A stretch of DNA of 64,000 nucleotides from an uncultured Bacillales bacterium (lineage in GTDB: Bacteria > Bacillota_I > Bacilli_A > RF39 > UBA660). The translations under genes and the position numbers were made by a program. The stretch is taken from positions 1,255 to 65,254 of the forward strand of contig CAMOSQ010000003.1 of the NCBI GenBank assembly GCA_946624985.1, given 5' to 3'. Below are positions 10,234 to 52,159 of the stretch, one piece after another; position 1 is the first letter of the stretch, and each line of letters begins with the position of its first letter. Under the pieces are notes generated by a model. It did not search any database, was not told the origin of the DNA, and saw only the letters and a list, made by a program, of their open reading frames with translations.

Positions 10234-13014
10234 ATGAAAAATAGAAAGAATAAGTTTTATTTATTGTTTGTTTTATGTTTTGTAATTGTTTTGGGTATTA
10301 TTATAATTCCTGGTTTAAAGAAAAATTATAAAGATGTTAAATCAAATAAATATTCAACTGCTCAAATAGAAGGATTTGAAAAAAATATATTTGGTTCTAC
10401 TGGTTGGGCTGTTATTGATTTAGAACTTAAGGAATCTACAGATGAAGGTTCAAATAAAGTTACAGATGTTAGTGCTGGTACTCCTTTTATGATATTAGGG
10501 GTTAATGGCTCATATTTTGAAATTAAATATGGAAATTATCATGGATATGTTGATAATAGTTATTGTATGATTAATCTTCCTGATGTTGTACCTAGTATTA
10601 AATATAATATAACTAATTCATATTCTAGTATTTATAAATCTTCTGGTATTGATATAGATGGTGTTACTGGTGAGACATTATATGGTACAAATTGTAATAA
10701 TAATTTATGTCAAGAAATTGGAACTGATGGAAAAGTTATGAATAATAAGATTAGTAGAAGTGAACATATTGCTCCTATTTTATATTCGGCTGCTTTAAAG
10801 ATTGCTCAGGCTCAGACTTTAGCAGTTAATGATGGATATAGTTTAATGATATATGATTCTTATAGACCAAGGAGTGTTAGTACATATATAGCGCAAAAAT
10901 TAAGCGATTTATATAGTAGAGATTCTATCGTTAAGAACGGTATTGATTTTAGTACTGGTGAATCTGGAACTCAATATAATTGGGGACAAGGTTGGTTTTT
11001 AGCTCAAGGATTGTCTACACATAATGTTGGTTCTGCTATTGACGTTACTTTATATAGCTTGAGTAATAATAGTGAGGTTAGTATGCCTACTGCTATGCAT
11101 GAACTTAGTACTGCAGCTATTAAGTATTATAGTCCTGAAGCACCGAAAGATTCTACAGGTTATTCTACAGGTATGAAAAATAATGAGGATGCACGAAGAC
11201 TTGATAATTATATGACTAGTGTAGGTATGGGAACTCTTGCTTCTGAATGGTGGCATTTTCAGGATAATGATGGATATAGTTTGTTAAGTAATGCGAATGG
11301 TGCTGATTTCCAAGTAACTAGCATTTTATCTGATTATGGTTTTTCAAATAATTTGACTGCTCCAGGTGATGTAAATGGTGATGGAAATATAAACGTTTCT
11401 GATGCAGAGTTAGTTTATAAATTTTATAAGTTCTTAGAAAGTAATACTTGCGATGGTTGTAATGAATTAAAAAATTATTCTGATGTTAATAGAAATAATT
11501 CTGTTGATTTAGATGATGTATATTTAATATTATCAACTATTGAATCTGATTTAATTACTTCGTCTTATACTATTGGTGATGATTATATTGACGTTGGAAC
11601 AGGTACTTTTGATGAAACAAAAGTAAGTTTATCAGATATTCAAAATTTAAGTTTAGATGTTGATAATGTAAATAATAAGGTTTTAATTAAGTATCATGGT
11701 GATGTAATTAAGGAATATGATATTGTTAGCTATAATTATCAAGGTAAGAACTTAGATAAAGATTATATATTTGCTAGTCCTAGTGAGGTTAGTGCTGATA
11801 AAGCCAGTGGAAAGTTTAGTTGTACTAATTGCTCTATTATTGTTGATCAGGATTACAACAAGGTTTATATAAAGAATGATATTAATAGTAATCAAAATTT
11901 AAGAGAGTTTGATTTAATTTATATGACAACTGGCTATAATATGGAAGGATCTTACATTGATGTTAATACTGAAAGTATTCAGGAATTTTTAAGTGGTATA
12001 TCTATTGTTAATTGTGATATTTGTGAGAGTTATATTAAAGATGGCGATAATATTAAAGATACTGGTAGTTTTATTGGTGGTGAAAAACTTGTTATAAGAA
12101 AAGATAGTAAAACTTTAAAGCAATATGATTTAATATTTAGGACTAGAAATGTTGTTATTTCTAAGAATTCACTTAATCTTGAATTAGACCAAGAAAAATC
12201 ATTTAATTTATCTGCAGATATCAAACCTAGTTATTCTACTAATAAGAATGTTACTTGGGAAAGTAGTGATCCTAGTGTTGCGACAGTTGATCAAAATGGA
12301 TTAGTTACTGCTGTAGGTGTTGGAAGTGCAAATATAACTGTAACAACAGAAGATGGTGAATTTTATGATGATTGTAGTGTTACTGTTGTTGAGTATTTTA
12401 CATGGCAAGTTGTTTATAGAAATAATGGTAGTGTTTATACCCAAAATTATAGAGCAGGTGAAAATGTTATTGTTAATGATATAGAATCTAAAAGGGAAGG
12501 TTATAGAATTGTTGGATGGAGATATAATAATCAAGATTATAGTTTAACTGATACTTTATCTATGCCAAGAATGCAAATTGAGTTAGAGGCTATATATGAA
12601 GAAATACCTAGTTTATCGGATTATACAATTGAAACTGTTGACAGTGTTAAATATATTAAGGATATTACTGTAAATACTAGTGTTTCTGATTTTACTTTAC
12701 AACTTGAATCTGGAAGAACTTTTAAAATATATGATGGTGATAATATCAAAACGTCTGGTAATATCGCTACTGGTAATGTTATTAAAATATATTCTGGAAA
12801 TGAACTTGTTGATGAATATCAAGTTGTAATTAAAGGCGATGTTAATGGCGATGGGGAAGTAAAGATAGGTGATGCAGTTAAAATTTATAAAAATCTATAT
12901 AATAATTTTTTTGGTGTTAGTGAGTGTATTAAAAAAGCTGCTGATTATAATGGTGATGGGGAAGTAAAAATAGGTGATTTTGTTAAAATTTATAAAGACT
13001 TATTTAATTCATGA
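10234..13014 (+). CDS. Secreted multidomain protein: M15 (VanY/D-Ala-D-Ala carboxypeptidase-like) peptidase + dockerin + Big_2 + C-terminal dockerin
   Basis: There is a signal/anchor sequence. The M15 motifs are SEHIAP, LSTHNVGSAIDV and EWWHF. The Ca-binding dockerin repeats are DVNGDGNINVSDAELVYKF/DVNRNNSVDLDDVYLI around aa 378-430 and GDVNGDGEVKIGDAVKIYK/DYNGDGEVKIGDFVKIYK at the C-terminus. The Big_2 Ig-like domain is NVTWESSDPSVATVDQNGLVTAVGVGSANITV. Confidence 0.7.
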   Translation: MKNRKNKFYLLFVLCFVIVLGIIIIPGLKKNYKDVKSNKYSTAQIEGFEKNIFGSTGWAVIDLELKESTDEGSNKVTDVSAGTPFMILGVNGSYFEIKYGNYHGYVDNSYCMINLPDVVPSIKYNITNSYSSIYKSSGIDIDGVTGETLYGTNCNNNLCQEIGTDGKVMNNKISRSEHIAPILYSAALKIAQAQTLAVNDGYSLMIYDSYRPRSVSTYIAQKLSDLYSRDSIVKNGIDFSTGESGTQYNWGQGWFLAQGLSTHNVGSAIDVTLYSLSNNSEVSMPTAMHELSTAAIKYYSPEAPKDSTGYSTGMKNNEDARRLDNYMTSVGMGTLASEWWHFQDNDGYSLLSNANGADFQVTSILSDYGFSNNLTAPGDVNGDGNINVSDAELVYKFYKFLESNTCDGCNELKNYSDVNRNNSVDLDDVYLILSTIESDLITSSYTIGDDYIDVGTGTFDETKVSLSDIQNLSLDVDNVNNKVLIKYHGDVIKEYDIVSYNYQGKNLDKDYIFASPSEVSADKASGKFSCTNCSIIVDQDYNKVYIKNDINSNQNLREFDLIYMTTGYNMEGSYIDVNTESIQEFLSGISIVNCDICESYIKDGDNIKDTGSFIGGEKLVIRKDSKTLKQYDLIFRTRNVVISKNSLNLELDQEKSFNLSADIKPSYSTNKNVTWESSDPSVATVDQNGLVTAVGVGSANITVTTEDGEFYDDCSVTVVEYFTWQVVYRNNGSVYTQNYRAGENVIVNDIESKREGYRIVGWRYNNQDYSLTDTLSMPRMQIELEAIYEEIPSLSDYTIETVDSVKYIKDITVNTSVSDFTLQLESGRTFKIYDGDNIKTSGNIATGNVIKIYSGNELVDEYQVVIKGDVNGDGEVKIGDAVKIYKNLYNNFFGVSECIKKAADYNGDGEVKIGDFVKIYKDLFNS

Positions 13015-21525: not shown

Positions 21526-21987
21526 ATGGAAAAATATATAAATACACTTCGTAATGATGATGTTGTGAAGTATTTAAATGAAGTTATGAATAGACTTGCT
21601 CAAATAGAAGGTGAGAACAGTTTAAAAGATAAGCGACTTTACAATTATGATTTAGAGGTTAGAAGATTACAAAATGAAAATTTAAATCTTCATAATCAAA
21701 TTAATTATTATAAGAGTATAGAGGCAACTTTGAACAATTCTATGGCAATGGTTAGAAATACTTCTGAACAAATTAAAAATAATGCTTTAAAGGAACGTGA
21801 GGTTATAATTAGTGACGCAAAGGGTATTGCTTCTAGAATACTTAATGATGCATTAATTAAAGCTGAGCGTGTTAATATGGAAACTGATAAGTTGAAAAGA
21901 GATGTTTCTATATATAAGAATAAAGTAAGGTCTTTAATTGAGTGTCAATTAGAGGTTATTGATGATATTGAGAAAATTGATATTTAA
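21526..21987 (+). CDS. divIVA: DivIVA-family coiled-coil protein
   Basis: The central/C-terminal region IEATLNNSMAMVRNTSEQIKNNALKERE...LIECQLEVI aligns to Bacillus subtilis DivIVA (IEETLNKSILVAQEAAEDVKRNSQKEAK...MLIEAQLDLL). It sits at the conserved sepF ... divIVA-ileS position. The extreme N-terminus is shorter than in canonical DivIVA. Confidence 0.65.
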   Translation: MEKYINTLRNDDVVKYLNEVMNRLAQIEGENSLKDKRLYNYDLEVRRLQNENLNLHNQINYYKSIEATLNNSMAMVRNTSEQIKNNALKEREVIISDAKGIASRILNDALIKAERVNMETDKLKRDVSIYKNKVRSLIECQLEVIDDIEKIDI

Positions 21988-21994
21988 AACATAT

Positions 21995-22198
21995 GATGAA
22001 GACGATATATTATTTGATTTATAGAGAGTTAGTGGTTGGTGAAAACTGATATGAGGATAATATATGGATCACTTTTGATGTGTTTAATCCAATAGGTTAA
22101 AACGGTGACGCGTTATAGTTGTTGAGTGCATAGAGTTCTATGAATTAAGGTGGTACCGCGATATTTCGTCCTTAAATTTGTAGGATTTTTTTTTGGAG
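21995..22198 (+). promoter_or_regulatory. T-box riboswitch leader
   Basis: Stem-I elements AGAGAG and GGTGA are present. The conserved T-box sequence AATTAAGGTGGTACCGCG is at 22143-22160, followed by a U-run at 22186-22194. It lies upstream of the CaCA-ileS gene pair, so the predicted specifier is isoleucine. Confidence 0.75.
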
Positions 22199-22206
22199 GT
22201 TAATAT

Positions 22207-23157
22207 ATGATTTTACAAGTTTTATTATTAGTAATTGGTTTTATTGTTTTGATTAAGGGAGCAGATATTTTTGTTGATGGTGCTTCTAGTATTGCATTAA
22301 ATTTTAAGTTGTCTAAGATGTTAATTGGTCTTACTATTGTTGCTTTTGGAACTAGTGCTCCTGAGTTTGCGGTATCTGTTAAGTCAATTATTTCAGGTAA
22401 TGCTGATATGTTACTTGGTAATGTTATAGGTAGTAATATTTTAAACATTTTGCTTATAATTGGTATTTGTTCTTTAATACATCCAATTTATGTTAAGAGT
22501 AATACTGTTAAGAAGGAAATACCTATTGTTATGCTTATTAGTGGTTTATTATTTTTTTTAGTTAGGGATGATTTATTTGTTAAAAGTATTAATGAAGTAA
22601 GTAGAAATGATGGATTTATAATTTTATTATTTTTTACTATATTTATTTATTATTTGATTTCTATTATGAGAAATAAGACTGATGAAGATTCTGATGATAT
22701 GGCAAAGTTTGGAATAGGTAAGTCTATATTATTTACTTTGTTTGGTATTATTTGTATTGTTATTGGAAGTAATGTTGTTGTTGATAGTGCTTCTAAGATT
22801 GCGACTATATTAGGTGTAAGTCAAAGAATGATTGCCTTAACAGTTGTAGCATTTGGTACATCTTTACCTGAACTTGTTACATCTATTGTTTCAATTAAAA
22901 AAGGTGAACAAGAAATTCTTGTTGGAAATATAGTTGGAAGTAATATATTTAATATTGGAGTTGTTTTAGGTATTCCAGTTGCATTATTTGGAGGTGTTCC
23001 AGCTGTTGGTTTTAGCGTTATTGATTTAATTGTTATGATTGTTGCTTCTATGTTATTATTTTTATTTTCATTTAAGGATAGAAAGATTGATAAATTTGAA
23101 GGTGTAATAATGTTAATTATTTTTATAGTTTATTATACTTTTGTAATTGTAGGTTAG
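22207..23157 (+). CDS. CaCA-family cation/Ca2+ antiporter (YrbG-like)
   Basis: There are two alpha-repeat motifs (GNVIGSNILN / GNIVGSNIFN) and ten TM helices. Confidence 0.8.
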   Translation: MILQVLLLVIGFIVLIKGADIFVDGASSIALNFKLSKMLIGLTIVAFGTSAPEFAVSVKSIISGNADMLLGNVIGSNILNILLIIGICSLIHPIYVKSNTVKKEIPIVMLISGLLFFLVRDDLFVKSINEVSRNDGFIILLFFTIFIYYLISIMRNKTDEDSDDMAKFGIGKSILFTLFGIICIVIGSNVVVDSASKIATILGVSQRMIALTVVAFGTSLPELVTSIVSIKKGEQEILVGNIVGSNIFNIGVVLGIPVALFGGVPAVGFSVIDLIVMIVASMLLFLFSFKDRKIDKFEGVIMLIIFIVYYTFVIVG

Positions 23158-23166
23158 GAGGATTTT

Positions 23167-26100
23167 ATGGAATTTAAAGAATTAAGTAAAAAGAATATAA
23201 ATGAGGTTGAAAGTGATATATTATCTAGTTGGAAGGATATGGATATATTAAAGAAAACAACTGATCATAGAGAAGGTTGTGATGATTTTGTTTTTTATGA
23301 TGGCCCTATATATGCGAATGCGAAACCTGGTATTCATCATGTTTTTGCGAAAACTATTAAAGATTCATTTTGTAAATATAAGGTAATGAATGGTTATCAT
23401 GTTTTAAGAAAGATAGGCCTTGATACTCATGGTTTGCCAATTGAAGTTAATGTTGAAAAGAAGTTAGGTTTTAAGTCTAAGACTGATATTGAAAATTTAG
23501 GTGTTGAGAATTTTTGTAAGGAGTGCAAAAAGGAAACTGCTACTAATATAGATGAAGTTAAAAAAGTTACTGATATGATGGGACAATTTATTGATTGTGA
23601 TAATCCATATGTTACTTGTGATAATGAGTATATTGAGTCTGAATGGTGGATTGTTAATGAGTTAAATAAAAAGGGTTTAATTTATCATGGCAATAAAGTT
23701 TTACCATATTGTCCAAGATGTGGAACTGAGCTTTCTTCTTTTGAGGTTGCTCAAGGTTATAAAGAGGTTTCTGTTAATACAGTTTATGTTCCATTTAAGT
23801 TAGTTGATGATGATACTTATGTACTTGTTTGGACAACTACACCATGGACTTTAATGGCTAATGTTGCTTTATGTGTTAATCCATCTTTAGAGTATGTTAA
23901 AGTATTATCAAAGGGTTATAAGTTTATTGTTGCTTCTAGTTTAGTATCTTCTGTTTTAGGTGAAGAGTATGAAGTATTAGAAACTTATAAAGGTAGTGAT
24001 TTAGTTGGTTTAAAATATGAACAATTATTACCTTTTGTTGATGTTACTGGTAAGGCTTTTGAAATTTTATCTGATGGTTATGTAACTGCTAGTGATGGTA
24101 CTGGTATAGTTCATATCGCGCCAGCATATGGTGAAGATGATAATAGAGTAGCTACATCTAATGGTATAAGTTTTATTAATCCTGTTGATAAGAATGGATG
24201 TTATATCTGTGGTCCATGGAAAGGAAGACTTGTAACTGATCCAGAGCTTGAAATAGATATTATTAAGTATTTAAGTAGTGAAGATAAGTTATTTAAGAAA
24301 CAAAAGATTAGTCATGATTATCCACATTGTTGGAGATGTAAACAACCTTTAATTTATTATGCTAAACCTGCTTGGTATGTAAATAATACTAGTTATAAAG
24401 ATAAGATAATTGAAGCTAACAGTAAGATTAATTGGTATCCTGCTTATGTTGGTGAGAAGAGATTTAATAACTGGCTTGAGAATATGGTAGATTGGGGTAT
24501 TTCTCGTAATAGATATTGGGGTTGTCCACTTCCTATTTGGGAGTGTTCATGTGGTCATTTTGAGACTATTGGATCATGTGCTGAATTAAAGGAAAAAGCA
24601 ATTGAGGATATAGATATTGATGCATTAGAGTTACACAGACCGTATGTAGATGATATTCATATTAAGTGTCCAGATTGTGGTAAGAGTATGTCAAGAGTTC
24701 TTGATGTTATGGATGTTTGGTTTGATAGTGGTGCGATGCCTTATGCTCAATATCATTATCCATTTGAAAATAAGGAATTATTTGAGAGTCAATTTCCTGC
24801 TGATTTTATAGCTGAGGGTGTTGATCAAACTCGTGGATGGTTCTATGTTTTACTTGTTTTATCTACATTAATTAGTGGTGAATCAAGTTTTAAAAATGTT
24901 GTTGTTAACGATATGATGCTTGATGCTCATGGTAAGAAGATGAGTAAGTCTGTTGGTAATATTATTGAGCCAATTAGTATTATGTCTAAGTATGGTGCTG
25001 ATACTATTAGATGGTATATGCTATATGTTTCTCCTGTATGGACTCCATTAAAGTTTGATGAAGAGGGTGTAAAGGAAATATATTCTAAGTATATAAGTAC
25101 ATTTAAGAATTCTTATTCATTCTTCCAAATGTATGCTAATGCGGATGGGGTAGATCCAAGAGAGTATGATATTCCAGTAGAGAAACGTGAAGACATTGAT
25201 AAGTGGTTAATTTCTAAATTAAATAAATTAGTTAGAGATGTTATTAGTGCTTTTGAAGAATATGATTTAAATAAAGTTACTAGACTTATTATTCCATTTA
25301 TTAATGATGATTTATCTAACTGGTATATCAGAAGTAATCGAAGAAGATTCTGGGAAAGTGAGTTAACGGAATCTAAGAAAGCAGTTTATCTTACTACATA
25401 TGAGGTACTTGTTACTTTATGTAAGTTATGTGCGCCAATTACTCCATTTATTACTGAAGAAATTTACAAGAATTTAACTGGTGAAGAGTCTGTTCATTTA
25501 GCTGATTATCCAGTTTATGATGAGTCTTTAATTAATGATGAAGTTGAAGAAAAGATGGATTTAGTTAGAGATATTTGTTCTTTAGGTAGATTTGCTAGAG
25601 AGGATGCTAAAATAAAGGTTAGACAACCAATTAGTGAGGTTTTACTTGATAAGAATGTTTCTAAGTTGATTAATGAATTTGAATCTGTTATTAAAGAAGA
25701 ATTAAATGTTAAAGAGATAACTTATATTGATAATATGACTGATTATTTAGATTATATTATTAAGCCTAATTTTAGAGAAGTTGGTAAGATGTTTGGAAGT
25801 AATGTAGGTGAATTTACTAAATTACTTGGAACACTTTCTGTTAGTCAAATTGAAACTTTAAAGAACGATAGTATTAAAGTTGATTTTATGGGTAATGAAT
25901 TAGAGATTACTCCTTCTATGGTGTTAATCACAGTTAATGTTAAGGATGGATATTGTTCTTCTAATAATGGTCATGTATTTGTTATTTTAAATACAGAGTT
26001 AAATGAGGATTTAATCTTAGAAGGACTTGCTCGTGAGATTGTTAGAAAAGTTCAAAGTCTTAGAAAAGATAACGATTATGTTATTACTGATAGAATTAAA

Positions 26101-26262
26101 TTATATTATGATGGTAGTGATATGATAGATAAGACTATAGATAAATATAGTGATTATATAAAGAATGAGACTTTAGCTGTAGAATTAATTAAAGATACTA
26201 GTTTATCTGAATCATATGATATGAATGGAGAACAAGTTAAGGTTAAGACTGAGAGAATATAA
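23167..26262 (+). CDS. ileS: Isoleucyl-tRNA synthetase (long, 1031-aa form)
   Basis: This is a class I aaRS with KMSKS, a CP1 editing domain and C-terminal Zn-binding Cys pairs. It starts 10 nt after the antiporter gene. Confidence 0.95.
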   Translation: MEFKELSKKNINEVESDILSSWKDMDILKKTTDHREGCDDFVFYDGPIYANAKPGIHHVFAKTIKDSFCKYKVMNGYHVLRKIGLDTHGLPIEVNVEKKLGFKSKTDIENLGVENFCKECKKETATNIDEVKKVTDMMGQFIDCDNPYVTCDNEYIESEWWIVNELNKKGLIYHGNKVLPYCPRCGTELSSFEVAQGYKEVSVNTVYVPFKLVDDDTYVLVWTTTPWTLMANVALCVNPSLEYVKVLSKGYKFIVASSLVSSVLGEEYEVLETYKGSDLVGLKYEQLLPFVDVTGKAFEILSDGYVTASDGTGIVHIAPAYGEDDNRVATSNGISFINPVDKNGCYICGPWKGRLVTDPELEIDIIKYLSSEDKLFKKQKISHDYPHCWRCKQPLIYYAKPAWYVNNTSYKDKIIEANSKINWYPAYVGEKRFNNWLENMVDWGISRNRYWGCPLPIWECSCGHFETIGSCAELKEKAIEDIDIDALELHRPYVDDIHIKCPDCGKSMSRVLDVMDVWFDSGAMPYAQYHYPFENKELFESQFPADFIAEGVDQTRGWFYVLLVLSTLISGESSFKNVVVNDMMLDAHGKKMSKSVGNIIEPISIMSKYGADTIRWYMLYVSPVWTPLKFDEEGVKEIYSKYISTFKNSYSFFQMYANADGVDPREYDIPVEKREDIDKWLISKLNKLVRDVISAFEEYDLNKVTRLIIPFINDDLSNWYIRSNRRRFWESELTESKKAVYLTTYEVLVTLCKLCAPITPFITEEIYKNLTGEESVHLADYPVYDESLINDEVEEKMDLVRDICSLGRFAREDAKIKVRQPISEVLLDKNVSKLINEFESVIKEELNVKEITYIDNMTDYLDYIIKPNFREVGKMFGSNVGEFTKLLGTLSVSQIETLKNDSIKVDFMGNELEITPSMVLITVNVKDGYCSSNNGHVFVILNTELNEDLILEGLAREIVRKVQSLRKDNDYVITDRIKLYYDGSDMIDKTIDKYSDYIKNETLAVELIKDTSLSESYDMNGEQVKVKTERI

Positions 26263-26285
26263 GGAAGCATAGGCTTCCTTTTTAA
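26261..26285. terminator. Bidirectional terminator between ileS (+) and the sigma factor gene (-)
   Basis: AAGGAAGC-ata-GGCTTCCTT followed by TTT. Confidence 0.7.
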
Positions 26286-26977
26286 TTGTTGTTTTTATTT
26301 TTTATAAATTCTCTTAACATTTTTGTAAGTGCTCTTTTTTCTATTCTTGAAACATAGCTTCTCGATATACCTAGTTCTTTTGCTATTTCTTTTTGCGTTA
26401 CTTCGTCTTGATTATTTAATCCATATCTTTTTATAATTATATCTTTTTCTCTATTATTTAATACATTAAAGTATGTTTTTAATAGTTTTATATTATTTTT
26501 TGTATGTATATCCATAGCAAAGTCAGGATCTGGAGTTTTTAATATATCTAAAAGTGTTATTTCGTTTCCATCTTTATCGAATCCTATTGATTCATTAATG
26601 CTTACGTTTTTGTTGTTTTTTTTATTGTTTCTATAGTTCATTAGGATTTCATTTTCTATACATCTTGCGCAGTAGGTTGTAATTCTTGTTCCATGTTTAT
26701 ATGAGTAGCTATCTATTCCTTTTATTAGTCCTATTGTTCCAATGCTTATTAAATCATCTGTTTCGTTTTTGTTATCGTATTTTTTTACTATGTGGGCCAC
26801 TAATCTTAGGTTGTGTTCTATTAGTTTATTTCGTGCTTCAATGTTTCCTTGAAGCATTTTTTTTACATATTCTTCTTCTTGTTCTTTTGTTAGAGGTTCT
26901 GGAAATACATCGTTTGAATATGCTGCTGAGAATATGTAAAAGTCTTTAAAAAGGTATTTCAATATTTTTAAAAGCAT
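26282..26977 (-). CDS. sigK: Sporulation sigma factor with pro-sequence, SigK-like (SigE not excluded)
   Basis: A roughly 20-aa hydrophobic pro-peptide is followed by FPEPL (Bacillus pro-sigma-K has FPQPL). The region 2 segment LIEHNLRLVAHIVKKY is identical in pattern to SigK. Region 4 has an HTH. Confidence 0.6.
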   Translation of the reverse strand: MLLKILKYLFKDFYIFSAAYSNDVFPEPLTKEQEEEYVKKMLQGNIEARNKLIEHNLRLVAHIVKKYDNKNETDDLISIGTIGLIKGIDSYSYKHGTRITTYCARCIENEILMNYRNNKKNNKNVSINESIGFDKDGNEITLLDILKTPDPDFAMDIHTKNNIKLLKTYFNVLNNREKDIIIKRYGLNNQDEVTQKEIAKELGISRSYVSRIEKRALTKMLREFIKNKNNN

Positions 26978-27086
26978 ACAATCACTCCTAATAAAGTATA
27001 TTTATATTTTTAAAATTAATATCTAGTTTTGTCGAAATTCATGTAATGTTTCGTTTATTGTGATAAATTATAATTGAGGTGATTAT

Positions 27087-27431
27087 ATGCTTGATGTTAA
27101 TTTTGAATTTAGGAGAGGTATACTTTTTATAAGACTTTGTGGTGATCTTACTAAGAAAACAATAAGTCAATTTGATGAAATGGTTACTAATTTAATTCGT
27201 GATAATGGAATTCGTAATGTTGTTTTTAATGTTAGTTATTTGAATAAAATTGATTTAAAGGGAACTAGTAGATTGTTTTATAATTATGAGCTTTGTAAAA
27301 AAAATAGAGGTGTAAGTTTACTCTGCTGTGTTGATAATAATGATATACATAAAAAAATTGAGAATACTAGATTGTTTCAATATATGTATGATCTAAATGA
27401 TGAGCTTTCTGCTTTTAATTTTATTGAATAG
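27087..27431 (+). CDS. spoIIAA: Anti-sigma-F antagonist (STAS domain, SpoIIAA-like)
   Basis: This 114-aa protein has the STAS fold pattern (ILFIRLCGDL ... VVFNVSYLNKIDLKGTS). It lies directly upstream of sigF. Confidence 0.7.
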   Translation: MLDVNFEFRRGILFIRLCGDLTKKTISQFDEMVTNLIRDNGIRNVVFNVSYLNKIDLKGTSRLFYNYELCKKNRGVSLLCCVDNNDIHKKIENTRLFQYMYDLNDELSAFNFIE

Positions 27432-27440
27432 GGGAGGAAA

Positions 27441-28103
27441 ATGGAATCTTTAACCAATTTAATTGATCAAAATAAGAATTTAATTTATAAAATTACGACT
27501 TTGTTTACTGGTTATAGTAATAAGGAGGATTTGTTTCAAGTTGGTTGTATAGGTCTAATTAATGCTTATAAAAAGTATGATGAAAGTTTTAATACAAAGT
27601 TTTCTACTTATGCTTATCCATTTATTTTAGGCGAAATTAGTAATTATGTAAAAAAGGATAAAGGAATTAAAATAAGTAGAGAGTTGAATCGAATAAATTC
27701 AATGATTGAGCGTACAAGTATTTTACTCACTCAAAAGTATATGAGAGAACCTTCTATATCAGAGATTGCATCTTATTTGGAAATTGATGAAAGTTTGGTT
27801 GTTGATGCGATGATTTCTAGATATCCTACAATTAGTATGGATAGTGTTATTAATGATGATGGTAGGGAAATAACATTACTTGATACTATTCCTGATATTA
27901 ATAATTTAGATATGAATACTTTAGTAGCTTTGAAGGATGAATTATTGAAACTTAGTCCTTTTGAGCAGCAACTTATAAATGAAAGATATGTTAAGAATTT
28001 GACTCAAAGTGAAGTTGCATATAATATGGGTATTTCTCAGGTTCAGGTGTCTAGAAAAGAACAGAAGGTTTTGTCTAAGTTAAAAAGTAGTTTAATTTCA
28101 TAA
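27441..28103 (+). CDS. sigF: Sporulation sigma factor SigF (short form, 220 aa)
   Basis: DLFQVGCIGLINAYKKYD...KFSTYAYPFILGEI and SQSEVAYNMGISQVQVSRKEQKVL align with Bacillus SigF regions 2 and 4. The N-terminus is about 30 aa shorter than in B. subtilis SigF. Confidence 0.7.
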   Translation: MESLTNLIDQNKNLIYKITTLFTGYSNKEDLFQVGCIGLINAYKKYDESFNTKFSTYAYPFILGEISNYVKKDKGIKISRELNRINSMIERTSILLTQKYMREPSISEIASYLEIDESLVVDAMISRYPTISMDSVINDDGREITLLDTIPDINNLDMNTLVALKDELLKLSPFEQQLINERYVKNLTQSEVAYNMGISQVQVSRKEQKVLSKLKSSLIS

Positions 28104-28137
28104 AAAAAACAATAGACTAGCTCTATTGCTTTTTTTA
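28104..28137 (+). terminator. Rho-independent terminator after sigF
   Basis: CAATAGA-ctagc-TCTATTG followed by CTTTTTTT. Confidence 0.7.
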
Positions 28138-28432
28138 GATTGAGTACAGGAGTGAATTATATATCTATTATAGTTTGTTTAGAGGTTTTTGAAAGGAGAT
28201 ATGGAAGTAGGCGCAGAATGTACTCAAATCTAATTATAAATTCTCCTTTCATATAAATATTATCATTTGTGTTTTTTTTGTTCAAATAGATAATTTTTAA
28301 TTTCTGTTATTTTTTTTTTACAAATTATGTATTTTTGTTTTATCAGAAATTAATTATTGTACTTGTATATTTGTATATTAAATATTTTTGTATAAAAATA
28401 TATATTTTTTACAAAATATAAATGGTGATTAT

Positions 28433-28873
28433 ATGGAAAAAAGAAAGTATCAAAGCATTGTAAATAAATATACGCCTAAAGAAAATAGATTATATAATGC
28501 TTTAGTTGCATTTGTTGTTGGTGGTTTAATGGGAGTTTTAGGTGAAGTTTTAATGGAACTTTATTCATATTTTTTAAATATTCCTGTTAAGGAGGCTTCT
28601 GTGTTTATGATTGTTACTTTAATTTTTATTGGATGTTTATTTACTTGCTTAGGATTTTTTGATAAGTTTGTACATTTTTGTAAGTGTGGTCTTATAATTC
28701 CTATTACTGGTTTTGCACATGCTATGCAGAGTGCTGCTTTAGAGTACAGGAAGGAAGGACTTGTTTTGGGAATTGGCGCTAATATATTTAAACTTGCTGG
28801 TAGTGTTATTGTGTTTGGTGTATTTAGTGCTTATGTTTTTGGATTATTAAGATTGATTTTAATGGGGGCGTAA
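28433..28873 (+). CDS. spoVAC: Stage V sporulation protein AC
   Basis: KYTPKENRLYNALVAFVVGGLMGVLGEVL matches the SpoVAC N-terminus. Length is about 147 aa from the ATG at 28433, which has a GGTGA RBS. Confidence 0.8.
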   Translation: MEKRKYQSIVNKYTPKENRLYNALVAFVVGGLMGVLGEVLMELYSYFLNIPVKEASVFMIVTLIFIGCLFTCLGFFDKFVHFCKCGLIIPITGFAHAMQSAALEYRKEGLVLGIGANIFKLAGSVIVFGVFSAYVFGLLRLILMGA

Positions 28874-28874
28874 T

Positions 28875-29861
28875 ATGACTAATAAATATGATAATGTTTA
28901 TATTAATGATGTTAGTACTATTAGTGGTCCATATGAGGCGAAAGGACCTTTTAGTAAATTGTATGATAAGAGTTATAATGATTTTTATTTTGGTGAAAAG
29001 TCGTTTGAGACTGCTGAGAGTAAATTGATTGATGAGTCTGTTGATATTTTATTGGATAAGGTTGATAAAACAAGATTTCAAATTGATTTATTGATTTCTG
29101 GTGATCTTATGAATCAGCTTACAAGTTCTAATTATGCTGCTAGTAGACTTGGTATTCCTTTTTTAGGTGTATATAATGCTTGCGCTACTAGTGTTGAAGG
29201 ATTAATTATAGCTTCTAATATGGTAGAACATAAGTGTGTTGATAATGTTATATGTTCTGTTGCTAGTCATAATAATGCTGCTGAAAAGCAATTTAGATAT
29301 CCTGTGGAGTATGGTGGACCTAAACCATGTTATACAACATTTACAACTACTGGTGGTTGCAGTGCTTATCTTTCTCGTGAAAAAAAAGGTGTTCGTGTTG
29401 ATAGTAGTACTATTGGAACTGTTGTTGATATGGGAATAAAGGATGTTTATAATATGGGTGCTGTTATGGCTGCAGCTTGTGGGGATACAATTTATAAGCA
29501 TCTTTCTAATACTAAAAGAGAGCCTGGTTATTATGATTTGATTTTATCTGGTGATTTAGGAATTTATGGAAAGAAAATTTTGGTAGAGTATATGAGAACT
29601 GAATATAATATTAACCTTAAGAATTATGATGATGCAGCTAGCATGATTTTTGATGTTGATAGGCAATCTGTATATGCTGGTGGATCTGGGCCTGCTTGTT
29701 TACCACTTGTTGCATATTCTTATGTAATGGAAAAAATGAAACATGGGGAAATTAATCGTGTTCTTCTTGTTGCGACTGGAGCTTTGATGAATACTACTAT
29801 GGTTAATCAAAAGTTATCTATTCCTAGTATAGCTCATGCAATTAGTTTGGAGGTAATATAG
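28875..29861 (+). CDS. spoVAD: Stage V sporulation protein AD (thiolase-like)
   Basis: There are extensive matches to SpoVAD: ISGDLMNQL, ACATSVEGL, NNAAEKQFRYPVEYGG and RVLLVATGALMN. Confidence 0.9.
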   Translation: MTNKYDNVYINDVSTISGPYEAKGPFSKLYDKSYNDFYFGEKSFETAESKLIDESVDILLDKVDKTRFQIDLLISGDLMNQLTSSNYAASRLGIPFLGVYNACATSVEGLIIASNMVEHKCVDNVICSVASHNNAAEKQFRYPVEYGGPKPCYTTFTTTGGCSAYLSREKKGVRVDSSTIGTVVDMGIKDVYNMGAVMAAACGDTIYKHLSNTKREPGYYDLILSGDLGIYGKKILVEYMRTEYNINLKNYDDAASMIFDVDRQSVYAGGSGPACLPLVAYSYVMEKMKHGEINRVLLVATGALMNTTMVNQKLSIPSIAHAISLEVI

Positions 29862-30211
29862 TGATATATTTTAATGCATTTTTATTTTGTGGTTTGGTTT
29901 GTTTAATTGGACAAATTATTTTGGATAATACTAAGCTTACGCCAGGACATATTACTGCTTTATTTGTTGTAGTTGGTGCTTTTTTAGATATATTTGGTAT
30001 TTATGATAAAATTATATTGTGGGCTGGTGGTGGAGCTTGTGTTCCTATTACTAGTTTTGGTCATTTACTTATACATGGAGCAATGGCATCTGCTGCTGAT
30101 TATGGTATTATGGGACTTTTTATGGGAATATTTGATCTTACTGCTTCTGGTATATCGTCTGCCATTATATTTTCTGTTATTTTATGTTTTTTATTTCAAC
30201 CAAAAAGTTAG
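29861..30211 (+). CDS. spoVAE: Stage V sporulation protein AE (SpoVAEB)
   Basis: LIGQIILDNTKLTPGH...GAFLDIFGIYD...AGGGACVPITSFG matches SpoVAEB. Length is 116 aa. Confidence 0.8.
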   Translation: MIYFNAFLFCGLVCLIGQIILDNTKLTPGHITALFVVVGAFLDIFGIYDKIILWAGGGACVPITSFGHLLIHGAMASAADYGIMGLFMGIFDLTASGISSAIIFSVILCFLFQPKS

Positions 30212-49037: not shown

Positions 49038-50117
49038 ATGAGTGTAGTTACGACTTATGGAAAACTAAGATTTCAGATAAAGGAGATGATAATTTTGGCA
49101 AAAGATTTAATGATAAGAAGCAGTACTGAAGAATTTATAACATTTAAAATTAAGGAAAAGGAGAAAGGTATTCAAGTAAGATATGAAAATGAGACTTTAT
49201 GGATGACACAAAAAGCTATGGCCGAATTATTTGATGTTGAACAACCTGCAATAGCAAAGCATCTTATAAATATATATAATGAGAAAGAATTAGATAAAAA
49301 TTCAACTTATTCCAAAATGGAATTAGTTCAAAAAGAGGGAAACAGAAATGTTAAAAGAAATGTTGAGTTTTATAACTTGGATGCAATAATTTCAGTTGGA
49401 TATAGAGTAAATTCGATAAGAGCAACACAATTTAGAAGATGGGCAACTAACATTTTAAAAACATTCACTATTCAAGGATATGTTTTGGATAAAGAAAGAA
49501 TGAAAAACGGCTCATTTATTGATGATGATTATTTTGAAAAATTATTAGAAGAAATTAGAGAAATAAGACTATCAGAAAGAAGATTTTATCAAAAAGTAAC
49601 TGATATTTATGCTACAAGTATAGATTATGATGCTAAATCTCCAATTTCAATTAACTTTTTTAAAAAAGTTCAAAACAAAATGCATTATGCGGTATCTAAA
49701 CAGACTGCTGCAGAAATTATTTATGATAGAGCAAATTCAGAAAAAGAACATATGGGACTGACTTCTTGGAAAAAATCTCCTAATGGCAAAATAATGGAAT
49801 CTGATGTTGTAATTGCTAAAAATTATTTATCTAAAGATGAAATAAAAGATTTAGAAGGAATAGTCAGTGCTTTTTTAGAAATAGCAGAAAATAGGGCTAG
49901 AAGGCATATCCCAATGACTATGGAAGACTGGGCAACTTAATAGATAAATATTTATTACTTGATGATAGGGATATATTAAAAGATGCTGGTAAAATATCAC
50001 ACGAGATTGCTTGTGATAAATCATTAACAGAATTTGAAAAGTATAGAGTAAAACAAGATAAGCTGTATAAGTCAGATTTTGATTTATTATTGGAAGAAAG
50101 TAAAAAGGGTGATTAGA
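49038..50117 (+). pseudogene. RhuM-family (virulence_RhuM) protein gene, apparently frameshifted near its 3' end
   Basis: The 300-aa ORF 49038..49940 carries the RhuM core (ENETLWMTQKAMAELFDVEQPAIAKHL; FYNLDAIISVGYRVNSIRATQFRRWAT). The typical RhuM C-terminus (LLLDDRDILKDAGKISHEIACDKSLTEFEKYRVKQDKLYKSDFDLLLEE...) continues in the +1 frame from 49942 to the TAG at 50115-50117. Confidence 0.65.
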
Positions 50118-51005
50118 TGGTTAGAAAGATTATATTCTCATCTTGATAATCCAAATGAGTATGTGATTTTAGAAGGAGCACAAGGTTGTGATTTAGATTT
50201 AAATCATAGTGGTAATTATCCATATGTTACAAGCAGAAATGTTTCTACATCCCAATTACTAGCTGATTCAGGGATATCACCAGAAAGATTATTACAAACT
50301 ATAATGGTTATTAGGCCATTTCCTATTAGAATAAGTAATATTACTAAATTAGGAGATATTATATATACTGGTGCGTATGGAACTGGTCAAGAACTTACAT
50401 GGACTGAAATCAATGTTGCGGCTCAATTTGGATGGTATCCTTATAAAGAAATGTTAGATGATTTTAAAATTGAATATGAAGAAGATGAATTTTTAGAATA
50501 TGTAAGAGAAGATATATTAAGATGTCCTGAAATATATTTAAAGCAAATATTTGGAGATAAATATATTAATCCTACTGATGTAACTTTATTACAAGCATTA
50601 GAAATGGAAAGATTATATTATAAATCAATCGGTGAAAGAGAATATGAAAGTAACTATATTGAATTGCCTTTAACTGAATCAAAAGATTGTCCTACATGTA
50701 TTTATGATTTATCTGAACAAACTACTGTTACAAAGATGGAAAGAAGAATCTTTGATTTAGATATAAGAAAATTAATTAATAACTGTCGAATTAATACACC
50801 ATCTAGTTTATATTTAAATTTCTTTCAACATTTAAGTTATGCTCATAAAGGTTTAAATGGTAATTATGATGATATATATTTTGATAAACCATTAAGAGTT
50901 TATCTTGATTGGCTTGAAAGTGAAACTGGTATTGATATATCTACTTTAGGTACTGGTGCTAGAAATGATGAAAGAATAAAAAGAAAAGAATTAATAAAAA
51001 GATAG
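50079..51005 (+). pseudogene. Adenylosuccinate synthetase (PurA/PurZ)-like ORF lacking the N-terminal GTP-binding half
   Basis: VILEGAQGCDLDLNHSGNYPYVTSRNVS...ADSGISPE matches the PurA IMP-binding signature (LLEGAQG..LDIDHGTYPYVTSSN...ATGSGLGP). That motif normally lies about 220 aa into the protein, but here only about 25 codons precede it. Those codons overlap the RhuM tail and begin at a TTG. Confidence 0.5.
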
Positions 51006-51246: not shown

Positions 51247-51382
51247 CATCTTGCAAGTTTTATATAAAGTTATGTTAAAATAGGGAAAAAATAATAAAAA
51301 ATGACTATTTTTAATGCAAAATATAGTAAGAAGTTTAAAGGTGATTACACCACCTAATAATAAGAATATTGAGGTAAATTAT

Positions 51383-52159
51383 ATGATTCACATTATGAAA
51401 TTGAAAGAACAATATTTCAATTATATTAGATATGGAACTAAGGAATATGAAATACGCTTAAATGATGAAAAAAGAAAAAATATAAAAAGTGGAGATTTTA
51501 TTGAGTTTCAAAAAGAACCATTTTTAGAAGAAAAAATGCTAATAATGGTTGATGACATATTACATTATGATAATTTCAACGAATTATTTAAGAACATAAA
51601 CATTGAGTTTTTAGCAGATTCATCAATAACAAAAAAACAATTAAATGCAGATTTAGAAAAATTTTATTCAATAGAGAAGCAAAAAGAATATGGTGTTGTT
51701 GCTATTAAGTTAAGAAAAGATATTGTAATTAATAATTCAAGTATTAATAATATTTCTTATAATGATAAAATTTTTGATATTTTAAAAAATAATTATTATA
51801 GTTTTGATTGTTGGTTTGATAAAATGAAATCTAACAATATTGATATATACTATACAAAGAAAGATAATAATATGACATCAATTATGATGTTAAAACTTGG
51901 CGAAACAGATTCTCAGCAATTTCTAGAGAAAGGCAATAAATTAAAAATTAGAACTCTTTTGGTTAATGATAAGAACAAAGGAATAGGGAAAACGTACATG
52001 AGTATTATTGATGACATTGCTATTAATAATAATATAGATTATATTTATTTAACCATAAAAAAAGATAATAAAGAATTAATTGATTTTATGAAAAGGTATG
52101 GATATAAGGAGTATAATCAATATAACGATGAATTTGTATATTATAAGGAGTTAAAATGA
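51383..52159 (+). CDS. ASCH-domain + GNAT acetyltransferase fusion protein
   Basis: The N-terminus MKLKEQYFNYIRYGTKEYEIRLNDEKRKNIKSGDFIEF is the ASCH/PUA-like beta-barrel signature. The C-terminus has GNAT motif A (NDKNKGIGKTYMS) and motif B (LIDFMKRYGYKE). The ATG at 51383 has a GAGGTAA RBS. Confidence 0.65.
   Translation: MIHIMKLKEQYFNYIRYGTKEYEIRLNDEKRKNIKSGDFIEFQKEPFLEEKMLIMVDDILHYDNFNELFKNINIEFLADSSITKKQLNADLEKFYSIEKQKEYGVVAIKLRKDIVINNSSINNISYNDKIFDILKNNYYSFDCWFDKMKSNNIDIYYTKKDNNMTSIMMLKLGETDSQQFLEKGNKLKIRTLLVNDKNKGIGKTYMSIIDDIAINNNIDYIYLTIKKDNKELIDFMKRYGYKEYNQYNDEFVYYKELK

Follow-up and report, generated by a model that had tools for sequence, protein, structure and literature searches.

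A probable spoIIAB-less spoIIA operon, with a SpoIIAA-like STAS protein lacking the acceptor serine, in a clade of genome-reduced low-GC Bacilli

In textbook accounts of endospore formation, compartment-specific gene expression begins when SpoIIE, SpoIIAA and SpoIIAB bring about the activation of sigma-F. How, then, is this sigma factor governed where the kinase gene spoIIAB is missing? The question is raised by a stretch of 64,000 nt (hereafter the window) from contig CAMOSQ010000003.1 of an uncultured Bacillales bacterium (assembly GCA_946624985.1, positions 1,255 to 65,254), in which a gene for a SpoIIAA-like STAS protein is followed directly by a gene for a SigF-type sigma factor. A preliminary description of the window had given the gene order and coordinates correctly, as calls of open reading frames (ORFs) showed. 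The STAS gene (27087..27431, + strand, matched by Pfam STAS) encodes 114 aa with Leu57 instead of a phosphorylatable serine and ends in the stop codon TAG at 27429-27431; the sigma gene (27441..28103, + strand) encodes 220 aa with Sigma70 regions 2, 3 and 4, and SigF was its top model. The 9-nt spacer between them carries a GGAGG ribosome-binding site. We consider that this is probably a spoIIA operon in a derived state, which lost spoIIAB by deletion in the ancestor of a large, fast-evolving and genome-reduced clade of uncultured low-GC Bacilli, most likely the order RF39 or a neighboring order.

No GHKL kinase is encoded between the STAS and sigma genes, and the 9-nt gap is too small for a gene. 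The search for the kinase was extended beyond this gap with the B. subtilis SpoIIAB and RsbW sequences as queries. Neither query had a tblastn match in the 64-kb window, while the SpoIIAB query was validated by matches of 88-154 bits in other fetched loci. The window and 99 fetched loci (858 kb), translated in all six frames, were then searched with a SpoIIAB/RsbW profile hidden Markov model built from those matches; up to E = 10, it found only loci of canonical order. Among 37 ORFs of the window scanned with Pfam, none had a HATPase_c or PP2C domain, and hence none was a SpoIIE-type PP2C phosphatase, although no dedicated SpoIIE search was made. Thus, the earlier claim that no GHKL kinase ORF is present was confirmed in the window by all three kinds of search. 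Both spoIIAB and spoIIE are likely to be absent from the whole genome.

What kind of protein is left in front of the sigma factor? The STAS protein scored 43.5 bits with Pfam STAS (cutoff 22.6), and its only solved sequence relatives were SpoIIAA proteins (1TH8, 1TID and 1AUZ; E 4e-9 to 3e-6). Its AlphaFold2 model, made with 70 homologues, was of high quality (predicted local distance difference test 93.5, predicted template-modeling score 0.85), and the five best fold matches were Geobacillus SpoIIAA chains, with template-modeling (TM) scores of 0.85-0.87 and root-mean-square deviations of 1.8-2.0 Å (1THN_B, TM 0.87). In the sequence alignment with these PDB entries, D-L-K-G of the window protein lay under D-S-S-G of SpoIIAA, so that Leu57 occupied the column of Ser58; the B. 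subtilis SpoIIAA reference sequence agreed with this alignment. In the model, Leu57 opens a helix of residues 57-72 at the same place as Ser58 does in SpoIIAA. At the canonical site, the predicted protein thus offers a kinase nothing to phosphorylate. The preliminary description had called it a STAS-domain antagonist: the STAS domain and the SpoIIAA fold stood, but the antagonist function is unproven, considering that the protein reached only 36.4 bits with the SpoIIAA equivalog TIGR02886 (cutoff 114.75) and that the acceptor serine is gone.

The loss of the serine is not peculiar to the window. Among 115 family members, the Ser58 column was occupied by Leu (67), Met (15), Ile (14), Phe (8) or Val (3) and in the few remaining ones by other residues, but in none of the 115 by Ser or Thr, while the flanking Asp56 (114/115) and Gly59 (115/115) were kept. 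The 30 distinct STAS proteins that were derived from kinase-less loci carried L, F, M, V, I, C, E, K, N, Y or P at this site, and one of them carried T. All six distinct STAS sequences linked to a kinase gene had Ser at this site, in the motif FMD-S-[SA]G (FMD-S-SA in one). Kinase loss and serine loss were thus perfectly correlated in the sequences compared. The STAS gene was intact in all kinase-less contigs, and both genes are under purifying selection, with 18 columns invariant across 70 STAS sequences of 50-92% identity and a median ratio of nonsynonymous to synonymous rates (dN/dS) of 0.21 for the STAS gene and 0.25 for the sigma gene (Nei-Gojobori, 78 pairs), values that are approximate at a dS of 0.5-1.0.

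How widely is this arrangement shared? When relatives of the sigma factor were clustered at 90% identity, more than 120 of the clusters were 69-100% identical to it, nearly all of 218-220 aa, and the STAS protein had 128 relatives, nearly all of 113-115 aa. Independent assemblies with an identical sigma factor shared the neighborhood. A metagenome scan with the sigma alignment gave 74 loci, whose ORFs were classified by phmmer. All loci in which the sigma factor scored at least 149 bits against that of the window (about 39% identity or more; about 45 contigs) had the STAS gene directly followed by the sigma gene. The gap between them ranged from -1 to about +12 nt (-1 to +9 in close relatives), and spoVA usually lay on the 3' side. 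Nine loci with a sigma score of 115 bits or less carried spoIIAB, and they showed the full order SpoIIAA-SpoIIAB-SigF wherever the contig reached far enough upstream. The comparison with close relatives that the preliminary description had suggested therefore showed a kinase-less STAS-sigma pair kept in about 45 related contigs.

Deeply diverged relatives also kept the order STAS-sigma-spoVACDE, namely the metagenome-assembled genome (MAG) "Bacilli bacterium Tb.RUG.4" (L007; sigma 42% identical), Clostridium sp. CAG:710 (L008; sigma 39% identical) and the complete record OW818670.1 of 1,494,278 bp (L011, assembly GCA_942493215.1; STAS 50% identical). In this last record, the STAS-sigF-spoVA locus (OW818670.1:1469187-1489528) lies 5-25 kb from the record end and adjoins a gyrA/parC-like gene. 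Provided that oriC is where the record starts, the operon would be origin-proximal, unlike the B. subtilis spoIIA operon, a point relevant to models of forespore activation.

The sequences before the gene pair were compared as well. A Spo0A-box-like motif, CTAGTTTTGTCGAA, lies at 27023..27036 (+ strand), 51-64 nt 5' of the STAS start codon, and an extended -10-like element, TGTGATAAATT, lies at 27059..27069 (+ strand), 22 nt 3' of the box. The core of CTAGTTTTGTCGAA is perfect for TGTCGAA, which we take to be the Spo0A-box consensus of B. subtilis. TTTGTCGAA, which is contained in CTAGTTTTGTCGAA, occurs only once in the window; this alone is not significant, as 26 of 100 shuffles hold at least one copy. 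The box was taken as meaningful because of its conservation across loci and not because of its uniqueness: CTAGTTTTGTCGAA was found at a nearly constant offset from the first codon of the STAS gene in most of the 29 kinase-less loci examined, deeply diverged ones among them (L007, L008, L011, L038, L041, L046 and L059), and also in the deeply diverged L096, and no box of this type was seen before the canonical kinase-bearing loci. TGTGnTAnAnT recurred at equal spacing 3' of the box in related loci. TGTGATAAATT, a putative promoter element, was not called by a generic sigma-70 promoter scan of the window.

Farther downstream, an AT-rich hairpin (CAATAGA...TCTATTG) followed by a T-run at 28104..28136 (+ strand), recognized by sequence reading and a centroid fold, is a probable terminator of the bicistronic operon. 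The terminator scan did not call it, as its stem has fewer than three G-C pairs. The 284-nt spacer between sigF and spoVAC held no Rfam family, no significant fold (z = -1.1) and only short, unconvincing ORFs. A forespore-type promoter-like element, GTATA-N16-ACAAAATA (28390..28418, + strand), precedes spoVAC and was recognized by its conservation in the clade, where GTATA-N16/17-CATAATA or a close variant stood 5' of spoVAC in 18 loci. We take this pattern to resemble the consensus of sigma-F/sigma-G promoters. The three genes that follow on the + strand, spoVAC (28433-28873), spoVAD (28875-29861) and spoVAE (29861-30211), were all identified by Pfam and NCBIfam. The start of spoVAC was re-set, since the ATG at 28433 (146 aa) is likelier than the TTG at 28388 and its ribosome-binding site, GGTGATTATATG, is identical to that of the STAS gene. 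Taken together, these motifs suggest an early Spo0A-dependent operon that would feed a forespore-type regulon.

Based on these observations, the following course of events may be proposed. The deletion of spoIIAB would have come early, after which the descendant of SpoIIAA would no longer have needed its phospho-acceptor and would have lost it. What remained would be a bicistronic unit of a Spo0A-box-like promoter, a non-phosphorylatable STAS protein and sigma-F; spoVAC-AD-AE would form an operon of their own behind it, transcribed from a forespore-type promoter. The phosphorylation-driven partner switch, with SpoIIAB as kinase and SpoIIE as phosphatase, would not operate here; the production of sigma-F would instead be set by Spo0A-dependent transcription, and the STAS protein would have been retained since it is active without phosphorylation. 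Considering the continued selection on the STAS protein and its tight co-translation with sigma-F, direct binding of sigma-F, either as inhibitor or as chaperone, is the most economical hypothesis for its action, but we hold it only tentatively; it is about equally plausible that the protein acts on a partner, not homologous to SpoIIAB, that is encoded elsewhere in the genome. It is likewise possible, though less likely than not, that in a whole order-level lineage of putative endospore formers the partner switch has collapsed to two proteins, such that the SpoIIAA descendant itself binds and gates sigma-F, as a direct anti-sigma factor or a chaperone, and forespore-specific activation proceeds without SpoIIAB or SpoIIE. 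The preliminary description had left three explanations for the missing gene, and of these a different control of SigF has the strongest support, from the kinase-less layout throughout a deep clade and from the loss of the serine in 115 of 115 family members.

Several points weigh against this interpretation. We know of no affinity of canonical SpoIIAA for sigma-F. One kinase-less STAS protein has Thr at the acceptor site (L036). The searches for spoIIAB covered the window and about 6-10 kb on each side of the locus in relatives. The placement in or near RF39 follows from the fit of the gene content and from CAG-710 being an RF39 genus, a membership for which the literature searched gave no support. 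STAS-sigma pairs without spoVA exist in genomes of about 1.1 Mb; one of them (L096:7600-8633, on a 1.09-Mb ENA scaffold, and also L097) consists of a 113-aa STAS protein (FVD-K-SG) whose gene overlaps that of a 210-aa sigma factor by 4 nt, with CTAGTTTTGTCGAA upstream, on a scaffold rich in DUF285 and arginine-deiminase-pathway genes. A crude neighbor-joining tree placed the clade outside canonical SigF plus SigG (bootstrap 68% and 81%); this tree is unreliable, since a FliA/SigD sequence (L009, recognized as such from the che genes around it) is drawn to the clade as well. Finally, the survey of RF39 genomes discussed below is based on counts of KEGG orthologues (KOs) in a handful of high-quality RF39 genomes (PMC10868615).

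Is the sigma factor a sigma-F at all? Among the alternatives to a derived spoIIA operon, the one that survives best, though still unlikely, is that it is not a true sigma-F but a lineage-specific SigF/G-like factor, for example the sole forespore sigma factor or a general STAS-linked regulator. Against NCBIfam the window sigma scored 192 bits with SigF (TIGR02885), 151 and 139 with the SigG models and 130 with SigB, all under the curated cutoffs, and the clade members tested reached 126-198 bits where the SigF equivalog cutoff is 321. This shortfall speaks for a factor of another kind, as do the tree, in which the clade is sister to SigF plus SigG, the pairs with the same box but without spoVA (L096), and the related sigma factors without a STAS gene (L056-58 and L098). 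On the other hand, a canonical kinase-linked SigF used as control (L062) was likewise under the cutoff (234 bits), and in the clade members tested, which include nine sigma factors beyond that of the window, the lead of SigF models was 22-45 bits over SigG and larger over SigB. The closest solved structure was Geobacillus sigma-F from the SpoIIAB complex (1L0O_C, 147 bits), ahead of the runner-up (108 bits) by 39 bits. Moreover, in the window and most clade loci the sigma gene has a SpoIIAA-like STAS gene 5' and spoVAC-AD-AE 3', which matches the spoIIA-spoVA neighborhood of Bacillus and Clostridium. The suggestion that the 220-aa protein belongs to a different sigma sub-family is not favored, since SigF models beat SigG in every member tested and the synteny with STAS, spoVA and the 0A-like box fits sigma-F; the phylogeny that had been proposed as a check did not resolve the clade inside canonical SigF and suffered from long-branch artefacts.

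The length of the sigma factor had also drawn attention. The preliminary description had put it at about 30 aa shorter at the N-terminus than the Bacillus protein, and alignment bore this out: residue 3 aligned with residue 29 of 1L0O_C and with position 33 of the 252-position PRK05572 model. As a sign of kinase loss, however, the shortness failed, because the canonical kinase-linked SigF proteins of L060 and L062 were equally short (221-223 aa); it is a trait of these low-GC lineages that is unrelated to the loss of the kinase.

More distant sigma factors widen this picture. A search seeded with the sigma factors of L056-58, which have no STAS gene, found a sister family of 207-211-aa sigma factors, and it found no match to a second F/G-type sigma factor on the same contigs. 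The STAS-less SigF-like factors themselves are 207-215 aa long (L056:2938-3561, L058:2199-2822, L057:709-1356 and L098:8001-8636); they could represent a further step of reduction or a sigma-G-like paralogue. L056 and L058 keep an upstream membrane-protein neighbor that is also found in L096. The link of the STAS-sigma module to sporulation may not be a strict one, and the module may persist where other sporulation genes have been shed; that it outlives its sporulation neighbors in some lineages calls for caution against a sporulation-only role.

Could spoIIAB simply have moved? In this explanation, which is quite unlikely, the gene would have been relocated, possibly as a kinase-dead anti-sigma factor, and the STAS protein would still be its antagonist, with abundance or a ligand taking the place of phosphorylation in its regulation. 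It draws on the scope of the spoIIAB searches at the window and the other loci, and on the strong conservation of Asp56, Gly59 and the SpoIIAA fold, as if the docking face were still used. But wherever spoIIAB was found in this data set it sat between spoIIAA and sigF, and to our knowledge it always does. The residue types at the acceptor site, at least 11 in number and including bulky and charged ones, suggest that no kinase active site constrains it, and the 858 kb of fetched DNA held no further match. In the RF39 survey, the KOs of spoIIAB and spoIIE are lacking in RF39, even if the wording, "reduced presence or complete absence", is not universal (PMC10868615). It is the lost serine, together with this report of reduced or absent spoIIAB and spoIIE, that makes relocation unlikely.

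Very unlikely, too, is a decaying sporulation remnant in a nonsporulating lineage that is about to lose the STAS gene. The lineage is genome-reduced, sporulation has been lost repeatedly in these orders according to the same survey (PMC10868615), and STAS or spoVA is gone in some relatives. Decay is nevertheless hard to reconcile with a STAS gene that is intact in about 45 contigs and whose dN/dS of about 0.2 equals that of the sigma gene; with the 18 invariant columns of its product; with the conservation of promoter motifs and ribosome-binding sites; and with the intact sigK, spoVAC/AD/AE, SpoIIIAH, GerE-like and GerM-like genes in the window. Neither faulty assembly nor a deletion confined to this contig can account for the absence of the kinase, since independent JGI, ENA, NCBI and Logan assemblies show the identical arrangement, by which this explanation is refuted.

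Returning to a derived spoIIA operon, the locus may be set against known systems. It resembles spoIIA of B. subtilis and Geobacillus in having a SpoIIAA-fold STAS gene first and a sigF-type sigma gene last, in the tight coupling of the two, in spoVA directly 3' and in the 0A-like box 5', and the STAS model superposes on Geobacillus SpoIIAA from the SpoIIAB complex (TM 0.87, root-mean-square deviation 1.8 Å). It differs in that the middle GHKL gene is missing, Ser58 is replaced by Leu57 and the TIGR02886 cutoff is missed. The promoter of B. subtilis spoIIA is of the sigma-H type, whereas the element found here looks like a 0A box with an extended -10. The STAS fold and the operon link to a sigma factor of the SigB/F/G family are shared with RsbV-RsbW-sigma-B and other STAS/GHKL/PP2C modules, but these keep the kinase and the serine. 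With regard to the sigma-B module in particular, SigB models scored lowest of the three here and RsbV structures were more distant fold matches.

Other STAS systems offer looser parallels. SypA, BtrV, RbaV and HmpV, as presented in the accessible part of the source, are a conceptual precedent for a STAS protein as output, but they retain the serine and a cognate kinase or phosphatase (PMC8256260); here both the serine and such a partner are apparently gone. In the sigma-SsdA/SipA system of Actinoplanes, a STAS antagonist domain is likewise tied to a sigma factor with wiring that departs from the classic three-protein switch; there, however, STAS domain and sigma factor form one fusion protein, and the STAS domain still binds the anti-sigma domain SipA (PMC10733313), whereas in our locus the STAS protein stands by itself and an anti-sigma factor is not evident.

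What has been reported for RF39 agrees with the content of the window. A gene-content survey that covered RF39, RFN20 and ML615J-28 (Microb Genom 2024) describes a reduction or absence of spoIIAB and spoIIE in RF39 together with the presence of spoIIIAH, and it predicts sporulation "with markedly different ... regulation" (PMC10868615). The window is likewise of low GC content and contains SpoIIIAH, one relative has a 1.49-Mb genome, and relatives bear the name "Bacilli bacterium"; the passages of the survey that were searched make no mention of a retained spoIIAA-like gene, of the loss of the serine, of STAS-sigF coupling or of a conserved promoter (PMC10868615). Turicibacter has the canonical trio (PMC13492147), and in a MAG classifier spoIIAB was present in 63 of 63 genomes predicted to be spore-forming (PMC12536801). 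Our literature search found no paper on a retained non-phosphorylatable STAS gene or on direct STAS-sigF coupling. Gene presence and absence was thus partly anticipated by one survey, and the operon structure and protein features appear to be undescribed.

The surroundings of the locus contain further sporulation genes. An intact sigK (26282..26977, - strand, 231 aa) is the divergent neighbor of the STAS gene, with 305 bits against NF004471 SigK (cutoff 252); it is context, lying outside the STAS-sigF unit, and also adjoins in L059 and L086-L095. The gene is uninterrupted, and its N-terminal extension resembles a pro-sigma-K leader (…YIFSAAYSNDVFPEPL), which implies that proteolytic activation may be retained. 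In the close relatives L086 (7906-9189) and L087-L094, an extra 427-aa sigma factor with regions 2, 3 and 4, of SigA-like size, lies between ileS and sigK; it is absent from the window and is split into ORFs of 131 and 266 aa in some contigs.

The window as a whole has 27% GC, a strongly positive GC skew and nearly all genes on the + strand. In 4-kb windows the skew was uniformly +0.21 to +0.46 at 25-30% GC, with no origin or terminus within the stretch. Between 48000 and 60000 the AT skew turned positive and the GC fraction fell to about 0.25. The genes there include a RhuM-family protein (49038-49940), an ASCH-domain protein (51314-52159) and a fragment (50079-51005) whose match to the 416-position adenylosuccinate synthetase profile is confined to positions 187-266; the region is possibly an island with a pseudogene in it. 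At 21984-22176 (+ strand), a T-box leader (Rfam RF00230, 103.8 bits) stands 5' of a gene of the Na+/Ca2+-exchanger family (22207-23157), which is followed by ileS (23167-26262); it is unusual for a transporter gene to separate a T-box from the gene of an aminoacyl-tRNA synthetase. A 926-aa protein (10234-13014, + strand) combines Peptidase_M15 (D-Ala-D-Ala dipeptidase), dockerin type I and Big_2 domains; that a cell-wall peptidase carries a dockerin suggests a cellulosome-like context of the rumen or gut.

What does the locus mean for sporulation? A large clade of gut and rumen bacteria without the kinase keeps sigF, a non-phosphorylatable spoIIAA under selection, spoVA, sigK and other sporulation genes. 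Therefore, either sigma-F is activated in these organisms by an unknown mechanism or these genes serve a role other than classical sporulation, and either outcome bears on how minimal a sporulation program can be. Markers based on spoIIAB for the prediction of spore formers from metagenomes would miss this clade. The findings also bear on what STAS proteins do without a kinase, for which the STAS protein and its sigma factor provide a concrete, testable pair.

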